From: a virus
Lineage: Duplodnaviria > Caudoviricetes
DNA length: 52,383 bases
Strand: one strand, 5' to 3'
Virus record (IMG/VR): IMGVR_UViG_3300033145_003438
Span: 1 to 52,383 of that record
Shown here: in pieces, positions 9,068 through 43,951 of the stretch
How the letters are laid out: every line of letters begins with the position of its first letter
How positions within the stretch are numbered: position 1 is the first letter of the stretch
Notes under the pieces: generated by a model
Databases searched by the model: none
Seen by the model: the letters and a program-made list of their open reading frames with translations, nothing else
Told to the model about the DNA's origin: nothing
Program-made: the position numbers and the translations under genes

Positions 9068-9233
9068 CAATCTCGTGATCAACGTTCAGAGACTATCTCT
9101 TCGGAGAGTACGGCCAAGCGGCCGGAAGTGCCCACCACCCCAACGGGGTGATGATATAGTCCCAACTGTATGGAAACATGCAGCAGCCAATAGTTTGGCG
9201 GGGTAGGGTTAGCGATCCTACTTGAAGGTGCTG

Positions 9234-16052: not shown

Positions 16053-16060
16053 GAGAATTT

Positions 16061-16731: not shown

Positions 16732-16734
16732 GCC

Positions 16735-17553: not shown

Positions 17554-17557
17554 TAAA

Positions 17558-17785: not shown

Positions 17786-18090
17786 TAGACATTAATTGAG
17801 ATGGATGATCCGGTCATGCCTCTGTTGGGGCTGAACCAAGCAAGTTTGTCGTTACTATCGTGAAAGTAAAGAAAGTAGGTTTCAGTTGTTCCATTTTTCG
17901 GGTCAAAAACAGAGTACCATAATGAAGTATAACCGGAATGATACGCGATTTCATCCGGAGTTCCCCACATCTGAACAACTTCGGCTTTTGTGGTTTCATC
18001 GATTTTTAGATCAGTAAACAGCTGTTTTTTAGTCACACTGGCGCAACCGAGCAATGAGAGCAGGACGATGAGACAGAGCAGCTTTTTCAT
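17782..18090 (-). CDS. BamE/SmpA-like lipoprotein moron (candidate superinfection exclusion)
   Basis: Lipobox LLG-C; LKIDETTKAEVVQMWGTP pattern; AAGGAG RBS; opposite strand. Confidence 0.72.
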   Translation of the reverse strand: MKKLLCLIVLLSLLGCASVTKKQLFTDLKIDETTKAEVVQMWGTPDEIAYHSGYTSLWYSVFDPKNGTTETYFLYFHDSNDKLAWFSPNRGMTGSSISINVY

Positions 18091-18171
18091 AGTTTATGCT
18101 CCTTAAAATGTGAGTTTGGAAGATTACCAAAAACATAACAACGATTTTTATAAATTCAATAGGTGGACATA

Positions 18172-19703: not shown

Positions 19704-22700
19704 ATGCCTCTTTCTACCATAGAACAGTGGAATCAGGATCCAGAGTTTTCCCAACTTCCCTATCAACAAAAACGGCAAGTTATCGATAATTATTTCGACT
19801 CCCGGCTTGCTGATGATGAATACTTTTCCCTTTCCTATGATGACCAGGACAAGATTAAACACAATTTCTATGAAAAGGAAGTCGGTCCTGTTCCCATTGA
19901 GAGAACACCCCTGGTTCCAACGGTCCAAGAAGAAGAAAAGGGATTCTTTGGTCGGATCGGTGAAAAATGGAAGACCGGAGAGGCCCAGACCGAACTTGGC
20001 ATCCTGAGATCCCGTCAGTTAATGGGTGAAGACACGCCGGAGATCCGCGAGAGAATCGCCAAGGTTAAGAAGGATATGCCCCAAGGCGAAGAGGAAAAGC
20101 GGAACCTGTTTGAAAGAGCGATCGGTGCAGCGGCTGAAATGCTTCCCATCCAGGTAGAGGGCATGAAACAGGGCGCAAAACGTGGCATTGCCCTTGGTAC
20201 CGGCTTTGGGACTATTGCGGGTATTGCCGGTCAAGCCGGTCCACAAGTTGCTACACCTGAAGAAATCATCACCGTCCCTGCGGCATTTGCCGGTGGGTTT
20301 GGCGTGGGAATGGTTTCCGGGACCCTTGAGAACATCGGGAAGATTGAAGCCGGTCTTGCCTATGATGAATTGCTGGACCTGAAGGACGAAAACGGGAATA
20401 AAATCGATCCCAAGATTGCCAAGGCCGCGGCCGCTTCTGTAGGTGTTGTCAATGGTCTTATCGAAATGTCACAGATCGGGCTCCTCTTAAAAACCATTCC
20501 AGGCGGGAAGGCAATATTAACAGGTGCGATCAGAAAAACGATTACCGAAGCCGTTAAAAAGGGAACTCTAAAACAGGTAGCTTTAAGGGCCGGTATAAAA
20601 TACGGAGTATTTGTTACGGCTGAAACCGGGCAGGAGGTCTTACAGGAATCTACCAATATCCTGATGGCCGAGGTTGCAAAAAAGGTTGATCGTAATTTGG
20701 GGAATTCGAACATAGCGCCTGCCACCCGCCAGGAAATCATAAGCCGATTGGTGGAAACAGCCGAACAATCCGCATTAGCCTTCATGGCCATGGGTGCGCC
20801 GGGGACTGTAGTAACCACTGGCATGGATGTCCGGGCCGCCAGAAAGGACGCACGAAACGAACTTCTGGATCCTGGTGAAGAAGGCGCGGACGCCAGGGAG
20901 ATTTTAACCGGGGAAAAGCCGGTATCACCCGATATTGAGGCTGTTGATACCCTGGACGCTGAAGAACAAGCAAGGCAGTTCGATGAAGATGAGCTCGACC
21001 GAGTTCAATCCCAAGAGACACAGACTAAAAAACCGAAAATCGAAAAGCCCAAAGCCCCGTGGATTGCGCGATTGACCGATGCGCAACTTACCCAACGTAT
21101 TGAAAATCTTGAAAACAACAAACGAGTTGGCAGGTTAAATGATACCCAGGCCAGTGTTCTTGAACGCCTTCACACCGAAACTGAAAACCGCGGCATCAAG
21201 TCTGCTTCTGACTCTGCAGGCGTTTTCTTTAAAGAAGAGATCGAAGAAGAAAAGAAAGAAAACTCTGCGAAAGCAAAGGAAATATTTGAACAACCAACCG
21301 AGTTGTCCGGTAAATCGGCCCAGGAATCAGCGCAGGCCATTCTTGTAGAAGAGGAAATTTCCAAAAATCAGACCGCAAGGGATGAAGCCAAAAAAGATAA
21401 CAATCTAAAATATATCGCCAAAACTCTGAAAATTGACAATATCGATAACGCCTCCAACGAGGAACTATTACGAGCTAAAATGCAGTTGAAACACCAGGGC
21501 CGTGATGACCTTGTTCGGTCCATCGACAACGAATTCGATTCGCGGCGGTCCGCGAAAACAGAGGAGAGAGAAAAAAAACAGGCTGAATCTGAAAAGCAAT
21601 CACCACCGGAAATAGATATCAAAACTCCAAAAAAGGAAGAGCAAAAATACACGACCCTTGGCGGTGCGATCCGGAACATGGGTGGTATTAAAACCGGTGG
21701 GTTGAAAACGGACATCCTCTATCAGAATGATGCTGCTCAGAAAGGCAAGCTGATCAACGAAAAATCCGGTCTTGAGATCGAGAAAATGCAGAGTCAGCTT
21801 GTCGACGCTGGTTGGATGCTTCCCAGTGAAGACCTTACCCAGATTCTTTCTGAGAATCCGGACAGACTCCGAGAGGGTATGCTTGACGGAGAGGCCAAAA
21901 CCAAATGGCAGAAAGAACGCTCAGCAGAAAAACAAGCCCAGGAAGATGAAATTCCAGAACCAACAAAAGATGAGATGGAAGCCGATCCTTCACTGGCAGC
22001 GGCTTTCCCGGAATTAGCGCAACAATATGGAATAAAGACAAGCCCGGCAGAAAAACCCGAGGATCTTGATATCAGTTTTGATTTTGGGGCGAATACGGAC
22101 TCCGGTACCACATCGGCAGATATGGCGGGGGTGGCCACCACCGATACAAAAGACGATGACGGTGCTCATGAATATTCATCCACCCAGGTAAACATTCCTG
22201 AATCAGAGGCAAAAGAGATCAAGGAGTTTTCATCCCAGATACCGGATTCTGAACTGGCAGATGACGGGCGCGAAGATACTCCGCACATTACCGTAAAATA
22301 CGGGCTCCATACCAATGATTTGCGAAAAGCTCAGCCCCTTATAAAAGGGGTGGGACCGATCAAGGCGAAACTGGGAAAGGTTTCCATCTTTGAAAATGAT
22401 GATGAAGATGTTGTTATGGTGGAGATCGACAGCCCTGAACTGCATGCTCTCAATAAAAAGATTGCCGATGGTCTGGAACATACGGACACACATCCGGATT
22501 ACAAGCCCCATGCCACCATAGCGTATGTAAAAAAAGGTGAAGGGAAGAAGTATGGCGGGGATGATCGATTCGAAGGTAAAGAGATCACCCTGAACTCTTT
22601 GGTGTTTTCCGGAAAGGATGGAAGGGAAACAAAATATAACTTTAAAAAAAAGCCGAAATCTGCTAAGAAACCTACCGTGACCTCCGAAAAGGGGCCGGGC

Positions 22701-25700
22701 AAAACACCCACCACAAAAACCTCTCAAAGCCCGAAGGGTGGGGACAATCTTGAAGTGTTATATCAGCACGATACAAAGCTGTTTATTGACGACGATGGTA
22801 AAGAGTATCGTGCCGATGATGCTTCTGATTCTCTTTCCTTATTATCAGACAAAGAATTTGTTGAGATAACGGGTTATTCAAAAAATGATTTTAGGAGGAT
22901 GGGGGGGGCAATATATTTCATTCCAAAAGATAAGCCAGGCATAAACTCCATTCATCATATCTCTGGTGAGATTATATTAAGTGATGATTTAAAGAATAAT
23001 AAGAGCACTCTACAAAAAACATTAATTCACGAATTAACACATTGGGGGCAAATCCAAAAAAATGAGGCACCAGAAGCCTATTATGTTAATCCAGAAGAAA
23101 GTATCTCTGGTTTTATGGATTATTTTTCTGACCCCGCTGAAGTTAAGGCAAGATTTAATGCGGATGGGCGATCTGATGAAGAATACAACGCATTTATAAA
23201 AGATTTGAATTGGGCCAAAAGTACAGATTCCGGCAAGATTAAAGCTCCAGACATCGGTGAAATTCGAATTGAAACAAGAAAAAAATGGCGCATGCCATTG
23301 TCGTATATTAAACAGGAAATTAAGGCAGCTCAAAGAAAAAACGATTATAGAAATATCGCTCCCCGGAAGCTACAAAACGACATTGATGAAATAGAGGGAA
23401 TTGTCGGACATGAAACAAGCGACGCATTAACAAAGAAGGATGATTTACACGAACAGCTTGAAACGATTTACAACAGAGATCCAATATCCGATAGTGATAT
23501 ATCCAATATTAATGAGTTTTACTTCGAAACAAAACGTAAGTGGAACCTAAGAAGGCTTGGCTCCGCAGATAGAAAACTCCGCAACGATGAAATTGAATAT
23601 TATGAAATACCTGTAATGCGGGTTGAGGTTTTGGGTAAGAAAAATCCTCAAACCGGGAAAAGAGGAAGAATAAATCCAATAATCACTGAAGGTATCCTAA
23701 GGGACAAAACAGGTATCAAGGGAATTGCCGTAGGGCCAAATGAAATTAATATTGATTTAAACGCATCTAATGTAAAAAACATATATAAGCTTAACAAGAA
23801 AACCAAAAAGTTTTTTCTCCCTAACCCCACAATCTCACCGGAAAAGGTGAGCAAAGATGCTACCCCTGCATCAAAACCCACCGTAAAAACCAAAGAATTA
23901 TCCCCCTCTGTTGTTTCGATACAGGGCGCCACACAACCCAAACCATCCAGAAAGAAAAAAGAAGACACCCTAAAATTTGGCGAAACCATCGGAGGCTCTA
24001 AATACGACAAAGCCCAAGAGCGCCTTTCTCTTTCTTCGATCACGGATATGAACGAGCGGGAGAGACATAAAAACATCGTAAAGAGAAATATCTGGCCAAA
24101 GCCTGATTATGTAAAGATGGTTGAAAGTGGTCATTCTCCTGAAAACATGTACTTGATCAAGAAAGTAATCGATTCAATACCGGTTCGACCGGAAAAGGTT
24201 GAAGATCAGGAACTGTTCATACAGGAAGTGGGCAGGATTCGAGATATCGTTGAACAGATCAAACCCGGTAATGATATTCAGGGCCTTTTCGGTAAAATAT
24301 TCACGGAGGAATACCATTCTCGGTCTGGTTATTCAAAAGGCTGGACGGAAAAGGGCGGGCCTGTTGCCCACATGCTTAAACCCAAATTTCTGAAAGCCGT
24401 TCAAATCAGCAATTACGATATGTTGACCGCCAAACGAAAAGTTGAAAAGACCGGTTTCCCGGCAAAACAGGAGGCATGGAAGCAGGGCATTGAGATTGTA
24501 GAGCGTGGTTTTGGCGATAATGCCACATGGTCTATTTTTCGGCGCAAGGGTGGCAGAATGGTCGAAGTCCTTGGCAAGGGCTTTAAAACCAAAGAAGAGG
24601 CCCAGAATCACCTCACAGACGTTCTGCAACCGAAATTGAAAGCATCGATGAAGGGAAAGGGCCGGTTTAAGAAGCCCATGCTTGACCACATCACGCGAAC
24701 AGGGACCGACTATCGGGATGGGAAGGATATTACCACTGACGATATCCTTGAAACATTCGGTTTCCGGGGTGGTGAATTCGGTAAATGGTTGAACGAAAAG
24801 AATCAGCAGGAATCCCTGAATCATGCCTATGACGCTTTCATGGATCTTGCAAACATTCTGGACATCCCTCCCATGGCCATAAGCCTGAATGGTACGCTTG
24901 GTATCGCCTTCGGTGCCAGGGGATCGGGGGGGGCGGCTGCGCATTATGAAGGCGATAAGGTCGTTATCAACCTTACGAAACTATCCGGCGCTGGATCGCT
25001 GGCCCATGAGTGGGGGCATGCTTTTGATGATTATTTCGGAAAAATGGCAAAATCGCCACAATCCGGAAAGTATATGATCACTCCCCTGTCTGCAGGAAAA
25101 ACAGGGAAAGAATCAACCGTCCGGCCGGAAATGCTCAATGCATGGCTGAACGTCAGAGGCCGGATTGCAAAACGTGATGAAACCAAAAAAGAGGCCATTG
25201 CTCGGGTTGAAAAGGAAATAAAGAAAAGCAAGCGATATACCAAGTCCTGGCTGGACGGGATCAGGACCGAGTTAGAAAGAGATGATACCGCATACAGTAA
25301 GAAGAAAAGGGCTGCAACCGAAAGTGAGTTAAAGTCCTGGGATAAATTGACGGAGGAAATCCTTGCCGGAAAGCATAAACCCGTTCTTGATGAAAATGTC
25401 CGGTCAAAATACACCATGCCGGCAGTCAATGACTTTTATAAGGGCGTCAAAGGCGTTCTTCCTGCCTCTGATACGAGAACAAGCCTATCGGCCAACATCA
25501 ACAGCCTTCAGCGCAACGTAGAGCACCTGGCAGAGATTAAATCGGATAAAGCAAAACCACGTCAGATCACAACCAATTTCAAGGGCAAGGCAAAAGAGCT
25601 CGGGAATGTTGAATACTGGGGCAATCCCCATGAACTGTTCGCCCGGGCGCTTGAATCCTATGTTGATGATCAGATAAGAGAACAACCCAACAAAAGCCAG

Positions 25701-28700
25701 TACCTCGTTCACAGCACTCAGAACAGCCTGTACGGTGAAGACATCTCTCCATATCCCATGGGTGTAGAACGTGTTGCCATCAACAAGGCGTTTGACGGGC
25801 TTTTTGATGTTCTTGAATCAAAAGAGACCGATAGGGGCGTTGCTCTCTTTTACAAGCGTCGCAATCCTCAAAAGTATAGTGTTCTCAGCAAGAAAAAACT
25901 TGAAGCTGCTATCACCGGCATATCTGGTGCATGGGAAAACGCCCCTGATATCGTCGTTCTGCAAAAGCAAAACGAGTTGCCAGAAAAAATACAGAAAATG
26001 GCCGATGGTGATATCGTTGACGGTGCACACTATCAGGGAAAGATTTTCTTGGTAGCCGAAAATATGAAGGACACCAACTATGTTGTTGAGGTTCTTCTCC
26101 ATGAGGCATTTGGCCACTACGGTATTCGTGGCGTCCTTGGGAAGAACTTAGCTCCCGTTTTAAGAGACGTTTATATCGCCAAACGAAAAGAGGTTCAAGA
26201 GATAGCCCAGGAATACGGCTTTGATCTCAGTGAAGAATCCGGAAGAGCACTGGCCGCCGACGAGTGGCTTGCCAGGGAAGCCCAGAAGAACCCCGAATCA
26301 AAATGGATTGACCGCGTTATCTCAGCGATCCGCGCCTTCGTCCGGAAATTCTACCCCAAGTTCAAGATGACCGACAAGGATATCCGGAAGATACTGGCCG
26401 ATGCAAAATCTTATGTGACTAAAGGAAAGCGAAAATCACATAAAAGCCGCATACCTTCATTCTCCAAAGACAAAAAGGCCGATAAGTGGCACTCCCAGAT
26501 GGCCAACTTCCTGAACATGAAGCTGACCAACGGACCCGCAAAACAGATCAAGTCTAATCTTCAGGCGTGGGCGAAGAAAGGTTTGATCAAACAAGAAGAA
26601 TTGGAATGGTCCGGATTGCTTGACTGGTTGGATTCCAAGAGCAAGGTCAACACATGGAATGCCGTTGCGGACAAAGATCGTTTTACCATCGAATTAAGGG
26701 AAGATGGCCGGTATTACCTTTATGATACCGATCTTGGACCTGATAATACGGCGGCAATGCCGGATTATGAAAAGTTTGAAGACGCCATTGCAAGCGCGGA
26801 GGATGTTGTTGATACCCGTAGGAACAAGACAATAAAACTTAATTTCAAGCCCAATAAACCAGGGAAGGTCAAAAAGATCGATACCCTGAATTACCTGAAA
26901 GATAACAATGTCACGTTGCAGGAGGTTCTGAAAGACAGTGAACTGTGGGTGGTGTGGGATGGTGAAGAAGAAACGTATTTTGAAACACACCAAGAGGCGC
27001 TTGATTACGGGCAAGAAATAGGCGCACCGCCAGAAGACATTTTTTATAAAGAAAGTAAGATGTCTGATGCGACCAAGTTTTCCCAATACACACTTCCCGG
27101 TGGAAAAAATTACAAAGAACTGCTTTTGACATTGCCGGCGAATTCCAAACCACAAACAAATGCGCTTAATGATTTTATTCGTCGGATGGAAAATAAGTAT
27201 GTTGGTACAGAACGACATTGGCGAGTTGCCATGAACGATCAAGAAGCAGATGAGTTTGAATCATTGGCAGAAGCCGAACGTTTAGGTTTTTCGACAGACA
27301 GCCAAGAATATAAGTCCTCCCACTGGCAAGAACCCAACGTATTAGCACACGTCCGATTCAACGAACGTACCGATGCAGACGGAAACAAGGTGTTGTTTAT
27401 TGAGGAGATACAGAGCGATTGGGCGTCCGAAGGTCGGAAGAAGGGGTTCCGTGGAAAGTTTAGGGGCCAAGGTTTTACTAAAAGCAAGGCTGTTTCTGAT
27501 GCTTTAAAACGTTCAAATATGGTTCCAAACGCTCCGTTTGTCGGGAGCACACAGAAATATGTGATGCTTGCGGTAAAGCGAATGGTAAGGCACGCCGCTG
27601 AAAACGGTTTCGACAAGATAGCCTGGACAACGGGACAGATACAATCAGATCGATACGATCTAAGCAAACAACTTGAGTCTATCACATATGCTCCCGATTC
27701 GAAGAAGGGGTTTCCGGGAATACTTCGAGCATATCCATTATCTCCAAATGAAGCGCCTATCATAAAACGAATTTCCGATGAAAATGAACTGGCTGTTGTT
27801 ATCGGAAAGGGTCTGGCAGAAAAAATCATTGATGGCGATAGAGATATCAGAGGTAAGGATCTCAAGGTAGACAGCCCCGGTATGCGCGGATTTTATGACA
27901 AGATTATCCCTGCTGCGGTTAATAAATTTTTCAACAAGGCCGCTTGGGGCAAGGCGAAGGTTGAGACAATAAAAATACAGACTGAAATAGGATCTGAGGG
28001 GTTTGAGATTCCCCAACGGGTTGAAGATGTCTGGTCTCTCCCACTCACCCCAAAAATGAAACAGAAAGCCCTCCGTGAGGGCATGCCCCTTTTTAAAAAG
28101 CGGGACCGCACCACCAAAAAGAGCGATACAGGATCCGGCATCCTTCCAGCGGAAGTCGAACAGCGCATGGAAGCATCCAGAGGCGTTCCGAAAACGACCC
28201 TGAAAGAAAAGGTCAAAGAGCAGATCGTAGAGATCCGCAGGCAGAGGCAGCATTTCCCCAAACTAAAGACTATCGAGGATAAAAACCTACGCCACCGTCT
28301 TGCCGATATCCTCCGGAGACATCAGGAAGTACCTGAATCGGTCAAGCAGCAGACAATAAAATTCTTGAGCTCATTTACCCAGGATCTATCCAAGCAGGAC
28401 TATGAAGCCTTTCGGATGCACATCATTCTGGCCGATATGAAACGGGATATCGACAAAGGCCTTTTGGATGAAAAATCAAAGCTGCCGTTCGGTTTTTCAT
28501 CCATAGACGATGTTGAAAAAGCCTTTAAGGGTTATCAGGAACTGGCAAACAACAATCCGAAGATCAAAAAAGCCCTGAAAAAAAGAAATGATAAGGTCAA
28601 TGAGATCAAGCAGAAACTGGTTGATGCCAAACTTCTGAAAAAAGAAGTGATGGAGGATGAAGACTATTTCCATCATCAAGTATTGATGTTCTGGGATGAT

Positions 28701-31217
28701 AAATACGGTCTTGCTACAGGTTCGAGCGATGTTAGAACCCACTGGCGCGGATGGATGGCAGCAAGGAAGGGATCTGCCCTTGATTACAACACCGAGTACA
28801 TTGAAGCCGAATTTATGGCCATATCTCAGCAGATGGCCCAGTTGGAGGCCGTTGCCACCCTGAAACGGATCAAGGACGAAGCGGATGTTTATTCTCAGAT
28901 AAAGTCCCATGCCAAGGCCGCGAACTTCAATAATTTTTACAAGAAACTTAAAGATGCTTTCGGGCATGATGTTAAAGACACCGACGATGATCCTTTAAAG
29001 CCATTCAGGGCCAAGATCGCCATGTCCAACATGAAGCTGGCAGAGATGGCCGCGAATGGGAAATTACATTACGATAGCGAATGGCAAGAGATTGTAGATG
29101 CTTTGAACAATTCTTATTCGTTCTGGAAAGAGAATAAAGACGACATCCCCGATATACCAACTCCGGGTGTAGATGATCCGCGTTGGTTTCACTTTTTGTC
29201 TCATCTACTCAATACACAAGCACCGGGGGCAAACTGGGCCGCTACCATATTCAAAAGTATCAAAGGCCGAGATACGACCATTCAGAGCACCCTTGGCGGT
29301 GATTTCCTGACCTACCGCAATTTAATCCCCAAGGGATACAAACAGTGGAAACCAGACCCCGGCAAAGGATGGTTCTGGGCCAATACGGTTGCCGATAACG
29401 CCCTTCAAAGAATGATCGACGGTGAACTGAACCCGAAAGATGTTGAATTCCGGAAGATCATCGCAAAGGGCAGGGATCTAATATGGATCATCCCCGAGGG
29501 GCTTGCCGACACTCTGGATAAATTCATTGATTATGGGGATCCTTCACATATCGGGAAAGTGGCGGATAAAGCTCTTTCTATGTGGAAACAGTGGATCCTG
29601 TTAAATCCCTTCTCCGTGGTTCGATACAACCTTAATAATATGTCTGGTGACCTCGATGCGGTTCTGGCCTATGCACCCGGAATAGCCGGGAAGAAATACG
29701 CACATCAGGCCATGAAGGACCTCTGGAAGTGGCACAGAAGAAAGAATCTGCCGGCCAACGTGCAGAAAGAAATTGATGAAGCCCGGAAACTGGGAGTGAT
29801 CGGATCCGGCTTTTCCGTACAGGAAGTGGACGATGCCCTGAAAATTCTTTCCATGGATAAGATCGTTCGGGATGTCATTCTCGACGAAAAGCCCAACTGG
29901 TTTAACCCGAAGACCTACGGAGAAAAATACTGGAAATATGTTCAAATGTTTACGGCCCTGAGAGAGAACGTCCTCCGGTTGGCAGCCTACAGGTGGTTCC
30001 TCGAAAATAACAATAAACAGCTTTATGGTGCATCCAAACCGGAAGAGATCGATGCAATAACAGATCCCCACGAAAAGGCCGCGAAACTGGCCCGAGAACT
30101 CTTGGGGGATTACGGCAACCTTTCAAAGACCGGCGAGTGGGTCCGGAAGAGACTCATACCTTTCTATTCCTGGCTTGAAATCAATACCCCCCGATATGTC
30201 TATCTGATGCGAAACTCGAAATATGAGAACAGAAAAGCGGCATCTGCTACCGGTAAAATGGCAATGGTGGGTGGTAAAAAGGTTATCATGTCCTCTGCAA
30301 GTTTGGCTTTAAGGGCATCGATGCTCTATGGCGCCGTAATGCTTTGGAACATGACCATGTTTCCAGACGAAGAAAGGGAATTGGGCGAAACCGGCAGAAA
30401 TCAGCTTCACATCATTTTGGGAAGACGGGAGGACGGCTCAATCATTTCCATACGATTTCAAGGCGCTCTTTCGGATGCGCTTTCATGGTTCGGCATGGAA
30501 GATTGGCCTTATGATGTCAAAGACCTGATTGAAGGCAAAAAGACTATTCTTGATAAGTTGAAAGAAGCCGGCAAGGGCGTGTTTAATCGTACAATTCATG
30601 GACTCAGGCCAGAAATTAAAATGTTTGCCGAGCAGATCAGCGGGAAGAGTTACTATCCAGATGCTACCAGAGGGCTTCCGATCCGTGATCGCCTCGAACA
30701 CGCCATGAAGACTTTCAAGCTGGACCAGCTTACCGGATATAGGGCGGTGATCGGACGTCCGGGACGGGGAAAGAATCCCGATGCTCCAAGAGCGGTACAG
30801 GTCATGCAACACCTTGTCAACGATCTGCAGAGAATACTTGTCTATTATGCGGATCCCGGGATGCTGGCCTATTATGACACACGCGGGATGGTTTTCGATT
30901 GGTTGGCCAAAGAGGGTGACGAAAAGCGGTACGGTGGCAGACCCACGAGCAAGGCCAATTCATTTTATTGGTATAAACAAGCCATGAAATTTGGGGACCT
31001 TGAAGCAGCCCATCGATATTTAACAAAATACTACGAAAAGGGTGGAACGGAAAGATCAAAAATTACTTCAATCCGAAACGCACACCCCTTATCCAGTATT
31101 CCGAAGATGAGAAGAAAGGCCTTCCGGGATTCCCTGAAGCCGGACCAGGATGAAGTCTTAAAAAGAGCCCTTAAATGGTACAAAAAAACATATTTAGAAA
31201 AGGAAGGTGAGAAATGA
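19704..31217 (+). CDS. Giant polyvalent internal virion protein (2H phosphoesterase, zincin HExxH domains, LPD5/LPD1-like, EEIQSDW domain)
   Basis: HITV/HATI 2H motifs; HELTH, HEWGH and HEAFGH; FGETIGG and FGFRGGEFG..AFGARG; SHW..AHVRF..FIEEIQSDW. Confidence 0.85.
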   Translation: MPLSTIEQWNQDPEFSQLPYQQKRQVIDNYFDSRLADDEYFSLSYDDQDKIKHNFYEKEVGPVPIERTPLVPTVQEEEKGFFGRIGEKWKTGEAQTELGILRSRQLMGEDTPEIRERIAKVKKDMPQGEEEKRNLFERAIGAAAEMLPIQVEGMKQGAKRGIALGTGFGTIAGIAGQAGPQVATPEEIITVPAAFAGGFGVGMVSGTLENIGKIEAGLAYDELLDLKDENGNKIDPKIAKAAAASVGVVNGLIEMSQIGLLLKTIPGGKAILTGAIRKTITEAVKKGTLKQVALRAGIKYGVFVTAETGQEVLQESTNILMAEVAKKVDRNLGNSNIAPATRQEIISRLVETAEQSALAFMAMGAPGTVVTTGMDVRAARKDARNELLDPGEEGADAREILTGEKPVSPDIEAVDTLDAEEQARQFDEDELDRVQSQETQTKKPKIEKPKAPWIARLTDAQLTQRIENLENNKRVGRLNDTQASVLERLHTETENRGIKSASDSAGVFFKEEIEEEKKENSAKAKEIFEQPTELSGKSAQESAQAILVEEEISKNQTARDEAKKDNNLKYIAKTLKIDNIDNASNEELLRAKMQLKHQGRDDLVRSIDNEFDSRRSAKTEEREKKQAESEKQSPPEIDIKTPKKEEQKYTTLGGAIRNMGGIKTGGLKTDILYQNDAAQKGKLINEKSGLEIEKMQSQLVDAGWMLPSEDLTQILSENPDRLREGMLDGEAKTKWQKERSAEKQAQEDEIPEPTKDEMEADPSLAAAFPELAQQYGIKTSPAEKPEDLDISFDFGANTDSGTTSADMAGVATTDTKDDDGAHEYSSTQVNIPESEAKEIKEFSSQIPDSELADDGREDTPHITVKYGLHTNDLRKAQPLIKGVGPIKAKLGKVSIFENDDEDVVMVEIDSPELHALNKKIADGLEHTDTHPDYKPHATIAYVKKGEGKKYGGDDRFEGKEITLNSLVFSGKDGRETKYNFKKKPKSAKKPTVTSEKGPGKTPTTKTSQSPKGGDNLEVLYQHDTKLFIDDDGKEYRADDASDSLSLLSDKEFVEITGYSKNDFRRMGGAIYFIPKDKPGINSIHHISGEIILSDDLKNNKSTLQKTLIHELTHWGQIQKNEAPEAYYVNPEESISGFMDYFSDPAEVKARFNADGRSDEEYNAFIKDLNWAKSTDSGKIKAPDIGEIRIETRKKWRMPLSYIKQEIKAAQRKNDYRNIAPRKLQNDIDEIEGIVGHETSDALTKKDDLHEQLETIYNRDPISDSDISNINEFYFETKRKWNLRRLGSADRKLRNDEIEYYEIPVMRVEVLGKKNPQTGKRGRINPIITEGILRDKTGIKGIAVGPNEINIDLNASNVKNIYKLNKKTKKFFLPNPTISPEKVSKDATPASKPTVKTKELSPSVVSIQGATQPKPSRKKKEDTLKFGETIGGSKYDKAQERLSLSSITDMNERERHKNIVKRNIWPKPDYVKMVESGHSPENMYLIKKVIDSIPVRPEKVEDQELFIQEVGRIRDIVEQIKPGNDIQGLFGKIFTEEYHSRSGYSKGWTEKGGPVAHMLKPKFLKAVQISNYDMLTAKRKVEKTGFPAKQEAWKQGIEIVERGFGDNATWSIFRRKGGRMVEVLGKGFKTKEEAQNHLTDVLQPKLKASMKGKGRFKKPMLDHITRTGTDYRDGKDITTDDILETFGFRGGEFGKWLNEKNQQESLNHAYDAFMDLANILDIPPMAISLNGTLGIAFGARGSGGAAAHYEGDKVVINLTKLSGAGSLAHEWGHAFDDYFGKMAKSPQSGKYMITPLSAGKTGKESTVRPEMLNAWLNVRGRIAKRDETKKEAIARVEKEIKKSKRYTKSWLDGIRTELERDDTAYSKKKRAATESELKSWDKLTEEILAGKHKPVLDENVRSKYTMPAVNDFYKGVKGVLPASDTRTSLSANINSLQRNVEHLAEIKSDKAKPRQITTNFKGKAKELGNVEYWGNPHELFARALESYVDDQIREQPNKSQYLVHSTQNSLYGEDISPYPMGVERVAINKAFDGLFDVLESKETDRGVALFYKRRNPQKYSVLSKKKLEAAITGISGAWENAPDIVVLQKQNELPEKIQKMADGDIVDGAHYQGKIFLVAENMKDTNYVVEVLLHEAFGHYGIRGVLGKNLAPVLRDVYIAKRKEVQEIAQEYGFDLSEESGRALAADEWLAREAQKNPESKWIDRVISAIRAFVRKFYPKFKMTDKDIRKILADAKSYVTKGKRKSHKSRIPSFSKDKKADKWHSQMANFLNMKLTNGPAKQIKSNLQAWAKKGLIKQEELEWSGLLDWLDSKSKVNTWNAVADKDRFTIELREDGRYYLYDTDLGPDNTAAMPDYEKFEDAIASAEDVVDTRRNKTIKLNFKPNKPGKVKKIDTLNYLKDNNVTLQEVLKDSELWVVWDGEEETYFETHQEALDYGQEIGAPPEDIFYKESKMSDATKFSQYTLPGGKNYKELLLTLPANSKPQTNALNDFIRRMENKYVGTERHWRVAMNDQEADEFESLAEAERLGFSTDSQEYKSSHWQEPNVLAHVRFNERTDADGNKVLFIEEIQSDWASEGRKKGFRGKFRGQGFTKSKAVSDALKRSNMVPNAPFVGSTQKYVMLAVKRMVRHAAENGFDKIAWTTGQIQSDRYDLSKQLESITYAPDSKKGFPGILRAYPLSPNEAPIIKRISDENELAVVIGKGLAEKIIDGDRDIRGKDLKVDSPGMRGFYDKIIPAAVNKFFNKAAWGKAKVETIKIQTEIGSEGFEIPQRVEDVWSLPLTPKMKQKALREGMPLFKKRDRTTKKSDTGSGILPAEVEQRMEASRGVPKTTLKEKVKEQIVEIRRQRQHFPKLKTIEDKNLRHRLADILRRHQEVPESVKQQTIKFLSSFTQDLSKQDYEAFRMHIILADMKRDIDKGLLDEKSKLPFGFSSIDDVEKAFKGYQELANNNPKIKKALKKRNDKVNEIKQKLVDAKLLKKEVMEDEDYFHHQVLMFWDDKYGLATGSSDVRTHWRGWMAARKGSALDYNTEYIEAEFMAISQQMAQLEAVATLKRIKDEADVYSQIKSHAKAANFNNFYKKLKDAFGHDVKDTDDDPLKPFRAKIAMSNMKLAEMAANGKLHYDSEWQEIVDALNNSYSFWKENKDDIPDIPTPGVDDPRWFHFLSHLLNTQAPGANWAATIFKSIKGRDTTIQSTLGGDFLTYRNLIPKGYKQWKPDPGKGWFWANTVADNALQRMIDGELNPKDVEFRKIIAKGRDLIWIIPEGLADTLDKFIDYGDPSHIGKVADKALSMWKQWILLNPFSVVRYNLNNMSGDLDAVLAYAPGIAGKKYAHQAMKDLWKWHRRKNLPANVQKEIDEARKLGVIGSGFSVQEVDDALKILSMDKIVRDVILDEKPNWFNPKTYGEKYWKYVQMFTALRENVLRLAAYRWFLENNNKQLYGASKPEEIDAITDPHEKAAKLARELLGDYGNLSKTGEWVRKRLIPFYSWLEINTPRYVYLMRNSKYENRKAASATGKMAMVGGKKVIMSSASLALRASMLYGAVMLWNMTMFPDEERELGETGRNQLHIILGRREDGSIISIRFQGALSDALSWFGMEDWPYDVKDLIEGKKTILDKLKEAGKGVFNRTIHGLRPEIKMFAEQISGKSYYPDATRGLPIRDRLEHAMKTFKLDQLTGYRAVIGRPGRGKNPDAPRAVQVMQHLVNDLQRILVYYADPGMLAYYDTRGMVFDWLAKEGDEKRYGGRPTSKANSFYWYKQAMKFGDLEAAHRYLTKYYEKGGTERSKITSIRNAHPLSSIPKMRRKAFRDSLKPDQDEVLKRALKWYKKTYLEKEGEK

Positions 31218-31621
31218 AGAATGCATTAATCTTATTAGCGTTGTTTCTTGTGGTCCTGGTGACCATCGGAGCGGTGTCCACGAACCTTGAAGTGACTTGG
31301 GATAAAAGAGGCCAGAATTACGCCATTCAGCAGAGTACACACATTGATGCGCGGGTACTTGCAGCTGGTGTGGCCGAGTCTCATACCGTGCCTGCCAATG
31401 CTATCTATGTTGTCTTTTCAGCCCAGGACGGCGGGGGGGATGCTTGCAGCTTTTATGCAAATTTCTCAGGAACGGCGGCTGAACCCTCAGCGGATATTAC
31501 GGACGGATCCGGAAGCGAATTGAATCCAGCTGTCCGGGCTCTCGAAGGGGCAACGGCTATATCTCTTCTCGCCCCGGAAGCGTGTATCCTAACATTGGCA
31601 TTCTATAAAAGTGGTGTTTAA
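31214..31621 (+). CDS. Signal-peptide protein, beta-sandwich
   Basis: MKNALILLALFLVVLVTIGA N-terminus; ATGA overlap with the giant gene. Confidence 0.7.
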   Translation: MKNALILLALFLVVLVTIGAVSTNLEVTWDKRGQNYAIQQSTHIDARVLAAGVAESHTVPANAIYVVFSAQDGGGDACSFYANFSGTAAEPSADITDGSGSELNPAVRALEGATAISLLAPEACILTLAFYKSGV

Positions 31622-31641
31622 CGGCAGGAGGAAACCAGATC

Positions 31642-33081
31642 ATGAAAAAAATATTACTTTTAACAATCTTGATTTTGAGTTTTGCGGGCTTTGCAGAGGC
31701 ACAAAATCCGTTTACATTGCCTGCCGGGAGTGGAGGCGGGACAGCCACTGGTGTTGATGCAACCGAGACCATCCAGGGAGACAAAGGAATCGAGCTGATC
31801 CCGAGCGGACCGACTCTGTTTACTGCAAAGGCATTGACCGGCGGTGCGGCCGGTGCCTTGGACTCAATGTCGGTAAGCGATCTTTCTGACAACGATGTTG
31901 CCATCGTTCCGGTTCTCAGCGGGACTACCGTACTTGTCTACCGTTATATCTTCGATGCCGATGGAACGACCGCTGAAAGCTCTCCTACGGTCATTCGACC
32001 GGACGATTATTCATCCGCTGGTGTATGGAGGATAGATATTTTGCCGCCTTCAATGGGTGGATTGGGTATCGATACCTCCGGCCTTACGGGACTGGGCTGG
32101 GTAGGAAATCCTGCGGGTGATTGGAATGTGTTCGGTACGGCTTGGCGGTCAATCTACCTTGACGCCTCATCTAATATTCAGGGAATAACCCTTGGTGCAG
32201 CAAACACATTCCTTGGGTCCGATGGAGCCAGCACAGCACCAAGCTATCAGGCACTTGCGGATGCGGATATCCCTGATACCATAACGATTGCCGGCGGTGC
32301 GGATATTGCTGTCGCCGATGGTGGATCTGGATCGAGTACGGCAGCAGGTGCGAGGTCAAACTTGGGTGCAGGGCAGGAATGGATAGAAGACCCTGAAACA
32401 ACCGATGCTGACCCGGACACTATAACGATAGTCGATGGTGAAAAGATACTGTTACTCTTGACTGCACACCAGGCCGATGTGGACATAACCTTTGCAGAGA
32501 CTAATGCTACGCACATGGATGAAGTTCTGGTCTGTAATGTTAGTTCTGATTCATTGGCGTTTGCAGATAGTGCAGCGGTTTTTGAAACCTCTACTCCTAT
32601 CACGCTTGCACAGGATGAGTGCTTTAGAATGGTGTATAGGACGGATAGGTATGTTGTGACTTCGAGAGATACCAAGGCGGCCTCTTTTGCATCTCTTGAC
32701 ATTTCAGGTGGTCCATTCACCTCTGACATGCAGATGATCGTGCCAGATTCCAAAACCTATACGGGTGTGGATGAGAATCAGACCGTAGGCATAGGTGATG
32801 ATATTGAGAGCTCTGTTGTCCTCGTAACCGCTGTCGATGACAATGGGGATGAATCAATCGACTTACAGGACGGGACTGAAACTGGTATTATGGTAACCTT
32901 TATTGTGATAGCAAATGTAGATGTCACTGACGATGCTTTTATCATAGATGCTGAAACCGATTCAACTTGCACGGGATGTCCTGATGCTGGAATATTCACA
33001 CTTGAAACTGAGGGCAGTTCTGTGACGCTTTATTGGACAGGATCATTTTGGCATTACTGTGGCTCAACGGTAGGTGAATAA
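31642..33081 (+). CDS. Tail-fibre-like protein with Sec signal peptide
   Basis: MKKILLLTILILSFAGFAEA; fibre-type motif VADGGSGSSTAAGARSNLG. Confidence 0.65.
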   Translation: MKKILLLTILILSFAGFAEAQNPFTLPAGSGGGTATGVDATETIQGDKGIELIPSGPTLFTAKALTGGAAGALDSMSVSDLSDNDVAIVPVLSGTTVLVYRYIFDADGTTAESSPTVIRPDDYSSAGVWRIDILPPSMGGLGIDTSGLTGLGWVGNPAGDWNVFGTAWRSIYLDASSNIQGITLGAANTFLGSDGASTAPSYQALADADIPDTITIAGGADIAVADGGSGSSTAAGARSNLGAGQEWIEDPETTDADPDTITIVDGEKILLLLTAHQADVDITFAETNATHMDEVLVCNVSSDSLAFADSAAVFETSTPITLAQDECFRMVYRTDRYVVTSRDTKAASFASLDISGGPFTSDMQMIVPDSKTYTGVDENQTVGIGDDIESSVVLVTAVDDNGDESIDLQDGTETGIMVTFIVIANVDVTDDAFIIDAETDSTCTGCPDAGIFTLETEGSSVTLYWTGSFWHYCGSTVGE

Positions 33082-33884
33082 TGAAAAAACATAACAATCC
33101 TAACAAGTGGTTATCTTTATGGATTCTTGGGGTGATGCTGCTTACCTTTGCCTTGGGTTTGTTGACAGGTATAGCTCACGCAGAAGACGATTTACTCCTT
33201 GCCAATATGATGATGGGGGCGAATCAGCCGGCAGCGGGTGCAGATCCCTGCGCTGCAACTGCCTGTTCTGCATGTGATGGGCAAGAGCGTTTTGAGTGTG
33301 GGTCAACCGCAGGAGATGATGATTCAGATCAAGAGAATACAGTTACGTATACAAATGGTGGCGCTGCTGTGAATGATGCCTATACCGCAGATGCTCTTGA
33401 AGGCTCTGAGTCGCTACTACTTGATACTGACGATGATGCTAAGATAGGCGGTCTTACCGCAACCGATGGCGATCTGTATGTTGCGTGGATTGCTAAGTGT
33501 GGAACCGTTACTGAAGCGGTATCGTTAGTCAGGTTAGAAGAAACTGACGGAACTGACATCGTAAGGGGTTATATTGGCGAAGCATCCGGTGATTGGGGAA
33601 ACTCAAGGTTTTATTATGATGCTACCAACGATTATTCAGCGGTTCCTATGGATGGGGATGCTCCTGTCTATATGAAGTTGAAATATAACAATAGTTCCGG
33701 TGCATCAGACGGAGTGATTCAGTTTTGGTTTTCAAGCAACGGTGCAAATGGCAACTGGACATTGCAGCATGACATATCTGGTGTAGCTAATACAAACCAA
33801 GCCGGGCAAATATCGCTTGAAAGTGACGGTGACGATATAATTTTCGATGATGTTCGATGGGATACTTCTGACATAGACTACTAA
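33081..33884 (+). CDS. Exported acidic Cys-containing protein (lectin/ConA-like fold?)
   Basis: Signal ending IAHA, Cys cluster, DGVIQFW..IFDDV pattern. Confidence 0.6.
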   Translation: MKKHNNPNKWLSLWILGVMLLTFALGLLTGIAHAEDDLLLANMMMGANQPAAGADPCAATACSACDGQERFECGSTAGDDDSDQENTVTYTNGGAAVNDAYTADALEGSESLLLDTDDDAKIGGLTATDGDLYVAWIAKCGTVTEAVSLVRLEETDGTDIVRGYIGEASGDWGNSRFYYDATNDYSAVPMDGDAPVYMKLKYNNSSGASDGVIQFWFSSNGANGNWTLQHDISGVANTNQAGQISLESDGDDIIFDDVRWDTSDIDY

Positions 33885-33892
33885 AAGCTAAA

Positions 33893-35857
33893 ATGAAAAA
33901 ACTTATATTAACGATTTTTATAGTCGTTCTATTTACGAGCCAAGGATTTTCTGCAACTTATTTTATCGACTATGGTGCCGCAAATAATGACGCAAACGGA
34001 ACAACTTCAAGTACGCCCTGGAAGCATTGCCCAGGTGATCCGAGAGCAGACAGTAATGCTGATATTACTTTATCTGCTGCTGATGTAGTTGTATTCAAGG
34101 GCGGGATAACTTATGAGTTTGCTGATGGGGATGCAGATAGCCATATACCTGTGAATGCTTCGGGGTCAGAAGGGAATATAATTTATTTGCGGTCTGGTCA
34201 CTTACATGCTCCGGTATATGGTTCGGGCAGGGCGATCATAGACGGAACAAATGCGAATCTAAACTATGCGAGTAATCGAACAGGTGTAATTTATATGGGA
34301 ACTCGCAGTTATGTCACAATTGAAGGTTTGCAAATACAGCATGCCCCGTGGGTAGCTTATACGGGCTTGATCGGCTGGTTTGGCTCAAGTGGGAGTAATA
34401 TAGTCATTGATGATGTTGTTTTGCTATCCGACATTTCGCCCCCAAACGACTTGACAAGTGCATGGGCGGGAATAGTAATTCAGGGTGAATGGACAGGCGT
34501 GACACCTGCAACATTTACAATATCGGATAGTGAAATTTACGACATCGGTGGACACGGTATTTTTCTCAGGGCAGGCATGACAGGGGTTACAATATCTAAT
34601 AATGTTATTCATGATTGTGGCCCAAATCCAAGTCCATATCAAGGAGATGGTTTTTTTACTGAAAATGGAGGAGCCGGGGGCGATCCTACCAATATCACTA
34701 TTACTGGAAACGATTTTTATGACTTTGCCGAAAAGGGGTGTGGTTTAGTGGGTGGTGGCACCACAATCTTAATCGAGAAAAACTATTGCTATGACGATGA
34801 TGGAACGAATGGGTTTGGGTTTACGATTAGAAATGGCGACAACATCACGATGCGTAACAACTTGATTGTATTTGATAACGAAGGCAAATGGGAGGGGTTA
34901 TTTAGAATAAAATTGCAGAACTCTTTTGGTACAACTACCAATGTTTATTACTACAACAACACGTTGATAGGCTTATCGGCAGACTACGGATTTTACTTGA
35001 CCAAGGGAGATTCGACCCTAACTAATGTTTATCTATCCAACAACGTCCACGACTTTAATTCTGTCGGTACGCCAAAAGATTATATTTTAGTAGACACAAT
35101 ATCAGGTACGTTTGAGTCTAATTATAATATATTCTACGGTGGTGACGCTTTGCCTTATTCACACAATGGCACATCCAAAAATTTAGCGGATTGGCGTACT
35201 GCGATAAGTGATGAAGCGAACTCATCAGAAGAAGATCCTGGCCTTGATGGGAGCTACAAACCGGATAATATCAGCGATGCTGTTGTGGGTGCCGGGGAGA
35301 ACAATGGCGTGGTGGATGATAAAGATGGAAACAGTAGGCCACAAGGCATTGGTTTTGACGTTGGAGCTTACGAGTTTTTAATAACAGAATCAATCGCAAT
35401 CACAGGTACAATGGTTGACGGAGGGGTTGACGAGGGTGATTTAACGGGCGAGAAATTTGTTCTGACAGCCTCCGGCGATGAGTTTGTAGAAACTCTCTGT
35501 GACGATAACCAGATAACCACAGACTTTTTAGCAGGTATTGATGCAGAAGCATCATGGGATTTCAACGAAGCGGCTGGATTTGTAGCGGAGGTTACGCTTG
35601 TTCACGGAAATTGCACAAGAGACAGTGCAGCACAAGTTACCGTAGAAATTGCTGCTGGAGTCGTAAATATTACTCAAACCCAAACAGGCACTTGGACCGT
35701 CCCTGCATCAAGTATGGTAAGCGCAACACAGATCGTGGCAACCCCTACAATACCCATATCCGTGGTCGTGGCAGACACGACAACAGGGCAGGTGGGAACG
35801 TATAGTGCTGATGGTGCCGTGGGAACATATAGCTCGGATGGGCATGTGGGACAGTAG
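33893..35857 (+). CDS. Exported right-handed beta-helix protein (tailspike/depolymerase-like)
   Basis: Signal peptide; ATYFID..D.NGT..PWK, VTISNNVIHD/ITITGNDFYD repeats, DKDGNSRPQG..DVGAYE. Confidence 0.78.
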   Translation: MKKLILTIFIVVLFTSQGFSATYFIDYGAANNDANGTTSSTPWKHCPGDPRADSNADITLSAADVVVFKGGITYEFADGDADSHIPVNASGSEGNIIYLRSGHLHAPVYGSGRAIIDGTNANLNYASNRTGVIYMGTRSYVTIEGLQIQHAPWVAYTGLIGWFGSSGSNIVIDDVVLLSDISPPNDLTSAWAGIVIQGEWTGVTPATFTISDSEIYDIGGHGIFLRAGMTGVTISNNVIHDCGPNPSPYQGDGFFTENGGAGGDPTNITITGNDFYDFAEKGCGLVGGGTTILIEKNYCYDDDGTNGFGFTIRNGDNITMRNNLIVFDNEGKWEGLFRIKLQNSFGTTTNVYYYNNTLIGLSADYGFYLTKGDSTLTNVYLSNNVHDFNSVGTPKDYILVDTISGTFESNYNIFYGGDALPYSHNGTSKNLADWRTAISDEANSSEEDPGLDGSYKPDNISDAVVGAGENNGVVDDKDGNSRPQGIGFDVGAYEFLITESIAITGTMVDGGVDEGDLTGEKFVLTASGDEFVETLCDDNQITTDFLAGIDAEASWDFNEAAGFVAEVTLVHGNCTRDSAAQVTVEIAAGVVNITQTQTGTWTVPASSMVSATQIVATPTIPISVVVADTTTGQVGTYSADGAVGTYSSDGHVGQ

Positions 35858-36403: not shown

Positions 36404-36485
36404 AGGGGCGGGGTGGAATCGAACCACCGATATAGGTTCCCTGAGTTTAAGCATGCCCTATGCGTTACCCCTACGCAACCGCCCC
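36404..36485 (-). tRNA. tRNA-like element with enlarged anticodon loop (identity undetermined)
   Basis: Acceptor GGGGCGG/CCGCCCC, D stem GCGT/ACGC, T arm GGTGG-TTCGATT-CCACC, anticodon stem TAGG/CCTA enclosing 20 nt. Confidence 0.7.
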
Positions 36486-42970: not shown

Positions 42971-43951
42971 TCAATATGAGAACTTTCTCCCCTCCCTCTT
43001 GAGCGTCTCCTGTAAAATCTTTGCGTAAATTTCGGTTGTTTTTATATCAACATGCCCGAGCCATTCCTTGACGACCTCAAGGGCAATCCCGCTTTTTAAC
43101 ATCTGCGTGCCGAATGTATGCCGGGTGTGGTGAAGGTGAACATCCTCAATACCGCATGCCCTGGCGATCACCTTAAACGCTTTGGTATACTTTGACAGGT
43201 CGTTCCAATGGGTGAAAACATATCCGATGTCTTTTTCCTGGCCCATAGCCTCTTTTGTTCCGGACAGGATAGGTATGGTTCTTTCTTTATCGCCTTTTCC
43301 GATCAGCCGCAGGGTATCACCGTGGACATCCTGCCATTTCAGCCGGGCTATTTCTTCTCTACGAGCTCCGGTCCAAAGAGCAAATTTAATTACCCGGTAC
43401 ATTTCATAATTATTTTTCGTGGCATATTTGAGCATATTTTCGCGTTCTTTGTCGGTCAATATTCTCGGATGCCGTTCCGGGAGCTTGAACTCGACAACCG
43501 GCACTTTCTTTTTAATGTCACCCCAAGCATGGGCCTTATTCAAAATGCCCCTGATATGCCGGAGGTATGTATTGACAGATACTTTTTTAACCCTTCTGGT
43601 CAAGCAGATAGCCTTAAATTCGTCTATTTTATGTTCATTGATACGTGAGAGTAGGGTAGAGGCTCCAAACGCCTCAGAGAGCAGCTTGAAGGCCAGTTCA
43701 TAGGCTTCAATGGTCTTGTCTGATATGTCGGTGTGTTTCAGGAAAAAGCGATCCTTGAATTGTTTAATGGTAATCCGTTTTTTATCGTCAAGTTCTTCAA
43801 GTTTGCCCTTTAAATATTTGCGCTTCATTATATTATAAAGCGCCGTGGCCTCTCGTTTGTTTTTGGTTTTGAGAGCACGCGGTTTATCGCGCTCAAACTC
43901 GTAATAGTAATATCCGTTTTTTCTTTTAAATAGTCGCATGGATATTTTCAT
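42971..43951 (-). CDS. int: Tyrosine integrase
   Basis: TGARREE, GKGDKER, HHTRHTF, LGHVDIKTTEIY catalytic residues. Confidence 0.95.
   Translation of the reverse strand: MKISMRLFKRKNGYYYYEFERDKPRALKTKNKREATALYNIMKRKYLKGKLEELDDKKRITIKQFKDRFFLKHTDISDKTIEAYELAFKLLSEAFGASTLLSRINEHKIDEFKAICLTRRVKKVSVNTYLRHIRGILNKAHAWGDIKKKVPVVEFKLPERHPRILTDKERENMLKYATKNNYEMYRVIKFALWTGARREEIARLKWQDVHGDTLRLIGKGDKERTIPILSGTKEAMGQEKDIGYVFTHWNDLSKYTKAFKVIARACGIEDVHLHHTRHTFGTQMLKSGIALEVVKEWLGHVDIKTTEIYAKILQETLKREGRKFSY

Follow-up and report, generated by a model that had tools for sequence, protein, structure and literature searches.

What are four consecutive genes for apparently secreted proteins doing at the tail-fibre position of a tailed phage, when textbook assembly of such phages is wholly cytoplasmic? 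The question is raised by IMG/VR record IMGVR_UViG_3300033145_003438 (Duplodnaviria; Caudoviricetes), whose 52,383 bp, classed as a provirus with a CheckV completeness of 74%, constitute the window analysed here. The four genes, designated p1-p4, close a single late block on the + strand (1-35857), and the gene after p4 lies on the opposite strand and converges on this block. The answer we favour, with a probability of roughly 45%, is that p1-p4 encode a receptor-binding set which is exported, matures in the periplasm and joins the particle at lysis. An earlier note, made from the letters of this DNA alone, had described four consecutive late-operon open reading frames (ORFs) with signal peptides, and this was confirmed at the following coordinates, all four being flagged by the leader heuristic explained below (a slash marks the predicted cut).

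31214-31621, + strand: p1, 135 amino acids (aa), ATG start; leader at residues 1-20 (31214-31273), ..TIGA/VSTN

31642-33081, + strand: p2, 479 aa, ATG start; leader at residues 1-20 (31642-31701), ..AEA/QNPF

33081-33884, + strand: p3, 267 aa, ATG start; leader at residues 1-34 (33081-33182), ..AHA/EDDL

33893-35857, + strand: p4, 654 aa, ATG start; leader at residues 1-20 (33893-33952), ..GFS/ATYF

Leaders were called by a heuristic, combined with reading of the sequences. It asks for a positive n-region, then 10 or more consecutive hydrophobic, uncharged residues, and small residues at positions -3 and -1. By these means p1-p4 were all found to open with MK(K/N) at an ATG, followed by an uncharged hydrophobic run and small -3/-1 residues, which is the n-, h- and c-region layout of Sec/signal peptidase I substrates. 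Applied to the native starts of the 47 window ORFs with 85 aa or more, the heuristic flagged five, namely p1-p4 and a lipoprotein on the - strand (17782-18090). As a control, it flagged three of 12 virion proteins annotated by mass spectrometry (MS) in the cultured Cellulophaga phage phi18:3 (NC_021794), leaving out the portal and capsid-type proteins. The chance of a run of at least four among 54 genes was simulated at p = 0.0065 with a leader background of 10.7%, an inflated value that is the leader-bearing share over all fetched viral loci.

A survey of homologues for conserved signals, as proposed in the earlier note, showed that leaders are kept with the same layout and unrelated sequence in 13 of 17 homologues of p2 and in both homologues of p3 (41-42% identity). 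Eight of the 12 closest homologues of p4 were flagged, and the other four show by eye either an extended n-region or a truncated start, and a hydrophobic stretch precedes their ATYY start. The view that these hydrophobic N-termini are uncleaved anchors, infection plugs or start-codon artefacts rather than export signals draws on the long h-region of p1 (~17-18 residues), a possible anchor, and on the nature of the leader calls, made by heuristic and reading. It is rendered very improbable by a complete n-h-c arrangement, small -3/-1 residues included, and ATG starts in all four genes, by Shine-Dalgarno (SD)-like sites upstream of p1, p2 and p3 (none precedes p4), by the retention of the layout in homologues, by lipobox variants of p2-like proteins and by a leader-linked Cys pair in the p1 family. 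Conservation of the leaders, their add-on pattern and the Cys linked to the p1 leader lead us to read them as real export signals, and p1-p4 are very probably exported by Sec.

The Cys pair concerns two residues of p1.

31445-31447, + strand: p1 Cys78, candidate disulfide with Cys124

31583-31585, + strand: p1 Cys124, candidate disulfide with Cys78

The p1 family comprises 749 representatives at E ≤ 1e-3 (153 at E ≤ 1e-10), and its ESM Atlas clusters are 83-100% viral. The Atlas model (predicted template-modelling score, pTM, 0.67) suggests a small beta-sandwich of ~100 aa resembling PPC and cupin-like domains. Neither a useful PHROG (3/40 members, E ≥ 1.4e-3) nor a PDB sequence match was found for the family, and tblastn against 50,697 cultured-phage records gave no match for p1 and one weak match (E 9e-3) for a leaderless relative. 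A leader is present in 49 of 144 members. The cores of both kinds align from the same point, and the leaderless members begin where mature p1 would start. Cys at position 78 of p1 occurs in 23 of the 49 leader-bearing members (47%) versus two of the 95 leaderless ones (2%), exactly two Cys in 32/49 versus 24/95, and even and odd Cys counts stand at 33:13 versus 24:43 (Fisher p = 2.5e-4; the sequences are related, so that the tests are not independent). This pattern is what would be expected of a disulfide formed only in the periplasm, and the second Cys accompanying the leader thus argues for real export. On the p1 tree the leader label requires 29 changes compared with 41.3 +/- 2.5 when labels are shuffled, although well-supported branches by themselves force only two or more. 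In IMG/VR loci, p1-like genes lie next to tailspike, tail-fibre, J-like or baseplate genes, or next to the terminase genes located behind the tail module. Five of 26 carry a leader there (two are near-copies), their neighbours are mostly leaderless, and in these 26 cases the leader state was not mirrored by the neighbouring genes.

The bodies of p2-p4 contain all of the motifs, the Cys cluster, the beta-helix and the acidic composition that the earlier note had named (D+E versus K+R: p2 70/16, p3 44/12, p4 80/26).

31828-32046, + strand: p2 residues 63-135, conserved N-domain (homologue alignment)

32311-32367, + strand: p2 residues 224-242, fibre motif VADGGSGSSTAAGARSNLG

32692-33078, + strand: p2 residues 351-479, C-terminal beta-sandwich-type domain

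33249-33299, + strand: p3 residues 57-73, Cys cluster

p3 residues ~63-267, + strand: concanavalin A (ConA)-like jelly roll predicted by the Atlas model

34469-35044, + strand: p4 residues 193-384, Pfam Beta_helix (PF13229; E 3e-13, 50.1 bits against a cut-off of 25.9)

p4 residues 488-495, + strand: ..FDVGAYEF motif at the end of the helix

35357-35842, + strand: p4 residues 489-650, extra C-terminal module

Mosaicism is evident in p2. Its N-domain, which includes TVIRPDD (116-122) and GVWR (127-130), is common to many proteins with differing C-termini, its fibre motif is near-identical in P0047, a protein bearing PF03906, and its C-domain is at most 69% identical to other proteins (Phage_depo_C reached 19 bits, below the cut-off of 25). 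No tail-fibre Pfam family above cut-off, no PHROG at E ≤ 1 and no PDB sequence match was found for p2 or its family. In the cultured-phage records p2 had no tblastn match and a leaderless protein with the p2 N-domain one short match; p2 as a single query retrieved no viral contig, and queries with its N-domain and C-domain did yield loci. The domains also occur without a leader: the fibre P0036 contains the C-domain, P0046 has the N-domain at residue 11, and twelve further loci (L140-L148, L150-L152) encode it inside leaderless proteins of 413-1322 aa. Leader-bearing p2-like proteins usually have the N-domain ~8-10 residues past the predicted cut and mosaic C-termini. Modular receptor-binding proteins are laid out in this way.

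The predicted fold of p3 matched a heparin-lyase-I/PF14099 cluster in the Atlas (template-modelling score 0.62), and the model also lies near polysaccharide lyase family 14 (PL14), CBM_4_9/type IX secretion system (T9SS) secreted proteins and viral clusters; p3 may therefore be called lyase-like. p4 itself is a right-handed beta-helix. Its close family ends in a DIGAYE-type motif (choice_anch_Q, 24.4 bits, cut-off 25), and the C-terminal module of p4 shares 36% identity with a leader-bearing 697-aa protein of metagenome locus L154. No tblastn match to p4 was found in the cultured-phage records, and the only PDB sequence match of its family was the periplasmic C5-epimerase AlgG (E 0.004). Leaderless p4-like proteins on phage contigs L003 and L005 start with MAQYYIDF, MSFYYIDY and MPTYYIDY, which corresponds to the cut point of the leader-bearing ones. 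Together with the p1 family and the p2 domains in P0036 and P0046, they suggest that the leaders are an add-on to phage proteins.

The position of p1-p4 in the late block bears on whether they belong to the particle genes.

1-438, + strand: amidase without a leader; the lytic domain of the window sits here

After the lysis-type region 1-1533 and before the portal, + strand: small and large terminase genes

4250-6394, + strand: P22-type portal (Pfam P22_portal, E 7.5e-144)

9337-10140, + strand: capsid protein (Pfam capsid profile)

11880-12521 and 12531-13163, + strand: two SU10-type adaptor paralogues

13163-14986, + strand: nozzle-like protein (PHROG 'internal virion protein' match)

Between the nozzle-like gene and the giant gene, + strand: four proteins without known family

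19704-31217, + strand: giant 3837-aa polyvalent virion-type protein (Pfam LPD1, 2_5_RNA_ligase2, Acb1)

The stop codon of the giant gene overlaps the start codon of p1 (ATGA), and the p1/p2, p2/p3 and p3/p4 junctions measure 20, -1 and 8 nt. A scan limited to sigma-70-type consensus sites found no excess of promoter-like (9 versus 11.8 expected) or terminator-like sites (4 versus 5.3), so p1-p4 were not seen to have the promoter and terminator of their own that mark morons of the lom/bor type. Their codon usage departs from that of the core late genes: the correlation of relative synonymous codon usage (RSCU) is 0.30 for p1, 0.36 for p2, 0.18 for p3 and -0.15 for p4, compared with 0.53-0.96 among the core late genes, and is likewise low (0.28) for the ORF at 14988-16052. 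Such deviation fits horizontally exchanged receptor-binding genes and captured genes equally.

Capture is the essence of a different proposal, in which p1-p4 are lysogenic-conversion or host-benefit cargo, that is, secreted carbohydrate-active enzymes (CAZymes) and adhesins expressed by the lysogen for surface remodelling or polysaccharide feeding. The provirus class of the record is in line with it, as is an ORF (42971-43951) that resembles a gene in viral locus L140 and from a reading of its sequence is a candidate integrase. The foreign codon usage of p4 and the lack of an SD-like site upstream of it point the same way. The N-terminal module of p4 is widespread in bacterial and archaeal genomes, chiefly in the Planctomycetota-Verrucomicrobiota-Chlamydiota (PVC) and Fibrobacterota-Chlorobiota-Bacteroidota (FCB) groups, Patescibacteria and Desulfobacterota, and 57 of 80 p4-like genes in GTDB loci bear a leader; one close homologue has a dockerin. 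According to the available part of the respective sources, 5% of prophage CAZymes have signal peptides (PMC13507307), and viral beta-helix proteins of NosD-like type, among them one that combines a leader with a dockerin, have prompted three hypotheses including adhesion (PMC13452462). We nevertheless regard cargo as unlikely. The genes are tightly and in part overlappingly coupled to the giant virion gene with no promoter-like excess, the same packing behind tail genes recurs in loci L132, L134, L135, L136 and L139, the p1 family is almost purely viral and found among tail-fibre, tailspike or terminase genes, and near the 80 genomic p4-like genes no relative of any other window protein was found. 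The earlier note had named recent capture of plain host secreted proteins as what would speak against its reading; for p4 the host-widespread module and foreign codon usage bear this out in part, but it fails for p1, with its viral family, and leaderless counterparts of p1, p2 and p4 occur in phages.

Cultured relatives show where fibre genes would otherwise be. Podoviruses of Ralstonia and Vibrio and Stx-converting podoviruses are the closest cultured relatives (portal at most 44% identity, 502 records; the nozzle-like protein is matched in 362 cultured-phage records). The order portal, capsid, adaptors, nozzle-like protein and giant protein is that of Ralstonia phage Gervaise and Vibrio phage 1F273_PE002, which have tail-fibre genes between the adaptor and the nozzle-like gene and nothing structural beyond the giant gene. 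The Gervaise counterpart of the giant protein (4511 aa, annotated as DarB-like) is the last structural gene there. In the window, the second adaptor gene (12531-13163) and the nozzle-like gene (13163-14986) abut, and p1-p4 are the only fibre-like genes. A search with the last 600 aa of the giant protein gave no viral contig, and the portal was found in none of five chosen genomes, in one of 401 of one phylum sample (27% identity) and in none of 401 of another. In 1F273_PE002 (L164), positions 16040-19224 hold a tail protein gene followed by record-noted Avd and reverse transcriptase genes, that is, a diversity-generating retroelement adjoining a receptor-binding gene.

We read p1-p4 as receptor binders because no other receptor-binding gene was found, because p2 has a fibre layout, and because of the leaderless counterparts in fibre contexts, the coupling to the late operon and the case of phi18:3. 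Within this set p2 would be a modular fibre, p3 and p4 would act on polysaccharide, and p1 would be a small accessory beta-sandwich. They would be transcribed and translated along with the particle genes, and working Sec/signal peptidase I signals would thread them late in infection into the periplasm, where they would fold and at least p1 would acquire a disulfide, with head and short tail being assembled in the cytoplasm. At lysis, once the inner membrane has been opened by holin and endolysin, the two pools would meet, and assembly would end with the docking of mature p1-p4 on the particle, which up to then is finished but fibreless; some of them may also act unbound on envelope polysaccharide. 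From the genes and their late-operon coupling, the canonical leaders here and in homologues, the leaderless counterparts and the Cys pair of p1 we infer export, periplasmic folding and attachment to the particle, attachment with the least certainty.

Joining after lysis appears feasible, since the addition of tailspikes of the P22 gp9 type is energy-free and works in vitro. P22 has its tailspike gene at the distal end of its late region, and p1-p4 resemble this type in their distal place in the late operon, in the P22-type portal, in the beta-helix of p4 and in the modular fibre p2. However, P22-type spikes are leaderless and have an N-terminal particle-binding domain, whereas p4 has none and p2 falls outside the tail-fibre Pfam and PHROG families. 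A literature search, outside of which supplements lay, returned no paper on signal peptides of tail fibres or tailspikes, nor on such a maturation route for tailed phages.

A precedent for leader-bearing virion proteins is offered by phi18:3. Three consecutive genes, gp085-087, encode proteins with classical leaders that the record annotates, 'based on experimental MS/MS proteomics analysis' (tandem MS), as virion, structural and tail proteins, and none of the other nine MS-annotated proteins has one. The statement in the earlier note that tailed-phage fibres lack signal peptides was therefore too absolute, and the annotation raises the odds that leader-bearing proteins can reach virions. Like p1-p4, gp085-087 are consecutive genes with Sec-type leaders. 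However, phi18:3 has a Bacteroidota host and, by reading of the sequences, a Gln after each of the three leaders, whereas among p1-p4 Gln stands at +1 of the cut in p2 alone. D-[ST]-[AILVMT] sequons showed no Bacteroidota-type enrichment in p1-p4 either (observed/shuffled: p1 0/0.4, p2 6/4.4, p3 0/1.9, p4 4/3.8). The literature search found no paper commenting on the leaders of gp085-087.

Runs of leader-bearing genes are not confined to the window. Among viral and metagenome loci found with p2 N-domain, p4 and p2 C-domain queries, runs of 3-6 such genes were seen behind the tail genes of no fewer than nine uncultured phage contigs that are unrelated to one another.

L132: run of five

L134: run of four, after NlpC/P60 and GpJ

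L135: a run of two and a later run of five, after Baseplate_J and DUF2612

L136 (near-copies L137 and L138): seven flagged genes, of which four form an unbroken run; a Tat-like start is seen in one of the later proteins

L139: eight flagged genes, of which four form an unbroken run, after Phage-tail_3

L149: six flagged genes, of which three form an unbroken run, after a tape-measure gene

L002: five flagged genes, of which three form an unbroken run as counted by script

L004: run of four

L154: run of six

Domains within the runs include Beta_helix, NosD, Polysacc_lyase, Laminin_G_3 and fn3, with Polysacc_lyase_14 below threshold. In L136 (10209-10778; also in L137 and L138), a 189-aa protein with a twin-arginine-like start (MNRRDFLRRAF..) lies amid the Sec-leader genes, which suggests export of a folded phage protein by twin-arginine translocation (Tat).

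Several observations weigh against particle-bound p1-p4. The p2 N-domain occurs in phages of podo-, myo- and sipho-type tail alike, an unusual distribution for a docking domain, and some p2-like proteins are lipoproteins (L156 and L158, ..LFG/C, with another lipoprotein next) that would remain membrane-bound. Mature p4 opens at the helix cap (ATYFIDY..), as its homologues do, and by alignment has no recognisable particle-binding domain of the kind expected of a virion tailspike. Bacteria have its N-terminal module in many ordinary secreted proteins, and p1-p4 deviate from the core late genes in codon usage. p2 and p3 have five Cys each, and 53 leader-bearing and 66 other proteins from ten loci were alike in Cys density and parity (p = 0.50 and 0.69). 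The lambda-like L134 and the sipho-type L139 already own a central fibre, and the leader run looks accessory there. As for phi18:3, gp085-087 have no sequence similarity to p1-p4, and their detection by MS could come from co-purifying material. Lastly, the 354-aa ORF after the nozzle-like gene (14988-16052) could be an unrecognised receptor binder; no relatives of it were detected, with no tblastn match in the 50,697 cultured-phage records and no PDB sequence match, and it occupies the place of the needle gene in P22.

In the main alternative, p1-p4 would be exported but never part of the virion, forming a late envelope- or matrix-acting module made from fibre and tailspike parts. In that case p3 and p4 would cut or modify capsule, exopolysaccharide or O-antigen both from within the periplasm and once released, and p1 and p2 would bind it. 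Receptors on the dying cell and debris would be destroyed or masked, a role also proposed for T5 Llp, and the escape of progeny eased, with needle or nozzle proteins recognising the host. This is a real possibility, if one well short of even odds. It agrees with the four Sec leaders, the lipobox variants and the Tat-like neighbour in L136, with the enzyme-like domains that the runs encode (Beta_helix, NosD, Polysacc_lyase, Laminin_G_3 and, below threshold, Polysacc_lyase_14) and the lyase similarity of p3, with the AlgG match and missing particle-binding domain of p4 and with the accessory look of the runs where GpJ or Phage-tail_3 fibres exist. However, it leaves the phage without a recognised receptor-binding protein where cultured relatives have dedicated fibre genes. 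It also does not explain the modular tail-fibre layout and motifs of p2 or the leaderless occurrence of its domains in fibre-type proteins, enzymes released by lysis reach the outside without a leader, and leader-bearing proteins of phi18:3 are annotated as found in the virion. The earlier note had offered two alternatives, receptor-binding parts matured in the periplasm or a surface apparatus built from fibre parts; what they share, Sec export of late fibre- and tailspike-type proteins, is supported, and the evidence is compatible with both.

Lambda Lom and Bor and T5 Llp are exported phage accessory proteins. In the available part of PMC6116005, the Sec-exported endolysin Lys44 and signal-anchor-release (SAR) endolysins are non-virion proteins that build up in the envelope before lysis. 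Porphyromonas gingivalis phages encode five Q-rule signal-peptide proteins of unknown function, which the authors read as host-surface modifiers in the portion of PMC10367356 available; the exported phage proteins in these two sources, as far as that text extends, are all non-virion, which again favours a role outside the particle. p1-p4 share with Lom, Bor, Llp and the exported endolysins the use of host Sec, and some of those are encoded beside tail genes. They differ in that the latter occur singly, as proteins of the outer membrane, lipoproteins or muralytic enzymes, do not derive from fibre or tailspike parts and do not form runs of four to six genes. Profile searches found no lytic (muralytic) domain in p1-p4 that would place them among SAR or Sec-exported endolysins, and their leaders, unlike SAR sequences, are strongly hydrophobic. 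The roles proposed across the available parts of PMC13452462 and PMC10367356 are attachment, lysis aid, adhesion and host-surface modification. The proteins described there are single genes whose place in the particle is unknown, and those parts contain no leader-bearing fibre modules, leaderless counterparts or Cys link.

Returning to receptor-binding proteins that mature in the periplasm, a broader reading is conceivable, for which the odds fall somewhat below even: a wide range of uncultured tailed phages of podo-, myo- and sipho-type may route a whole receptor-binding and depolymerase set via Sec, fold the fibres in the oxidising periplasm and complete the virion only upon breach of the inner membrane at lysis. 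The window would then be a member with a P22-type portal and SU10-type adaptors, its assembly being split over two compartments. If so, disulfides and periplasmic chaperones would be usable in fibre folding, host range would depend on the Sec and Dsb machinery of the host, and lysates would contain fibreless particles beside free fibres. Cytoplasmic expression of such receptor-binding proteins and depolymerases for biotechnology would often fail. If the proteins are never particle-bound, they would represent a new class, a late exported receptor-destroying or matrix-degrading module derived from fibre parts. Either way, annotation pipelines that drop leader-bearing genes as non-structural, or label them host cargo, would misread these phages.

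Other features of the window were noted as well. The lysis-type region upstream of the terminase genes (1-1533) holds, besides the leaderless amidase, a second ORF which, from an internal start at ~1072, opens strongly hydrophobic and is a candidate spanin or holin-type protein. The capsid ORF covers only positions 101-375 of the Pfam profile and residues ~105 onward of the Gervaise major head protein, and within the ~1.1 kb before it (region 8206-10140) a - strand ORF (8616-9053) encodes a LAGLIDADG-like motif; a mobile insert may have split the capsid gene. The - strand lipoprotein ORF (17782-18090, 102 aa, ..LLG/C) lies between ORFs 17558-17785 and 18163-19701 and has weak, sub-threshold NCBIfam lipoprotein matches.

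Beyond the late block, a tRNA is encoded on the - strand (36404-36485; Rfam 46.2 bits), for which ARAGORN gives a four-base anticodon; the fold as read has the loop CUUAAAC (anticodon UAA) and a long variable arm, hence a Leu-type tRNA. Direct repeats of 300 nt are found at 36569-36868/39022-39321 (73%) and 38285-38584/39379-39678 (96%), the former pair spanning two copies of a 111-aa early-region ORF.

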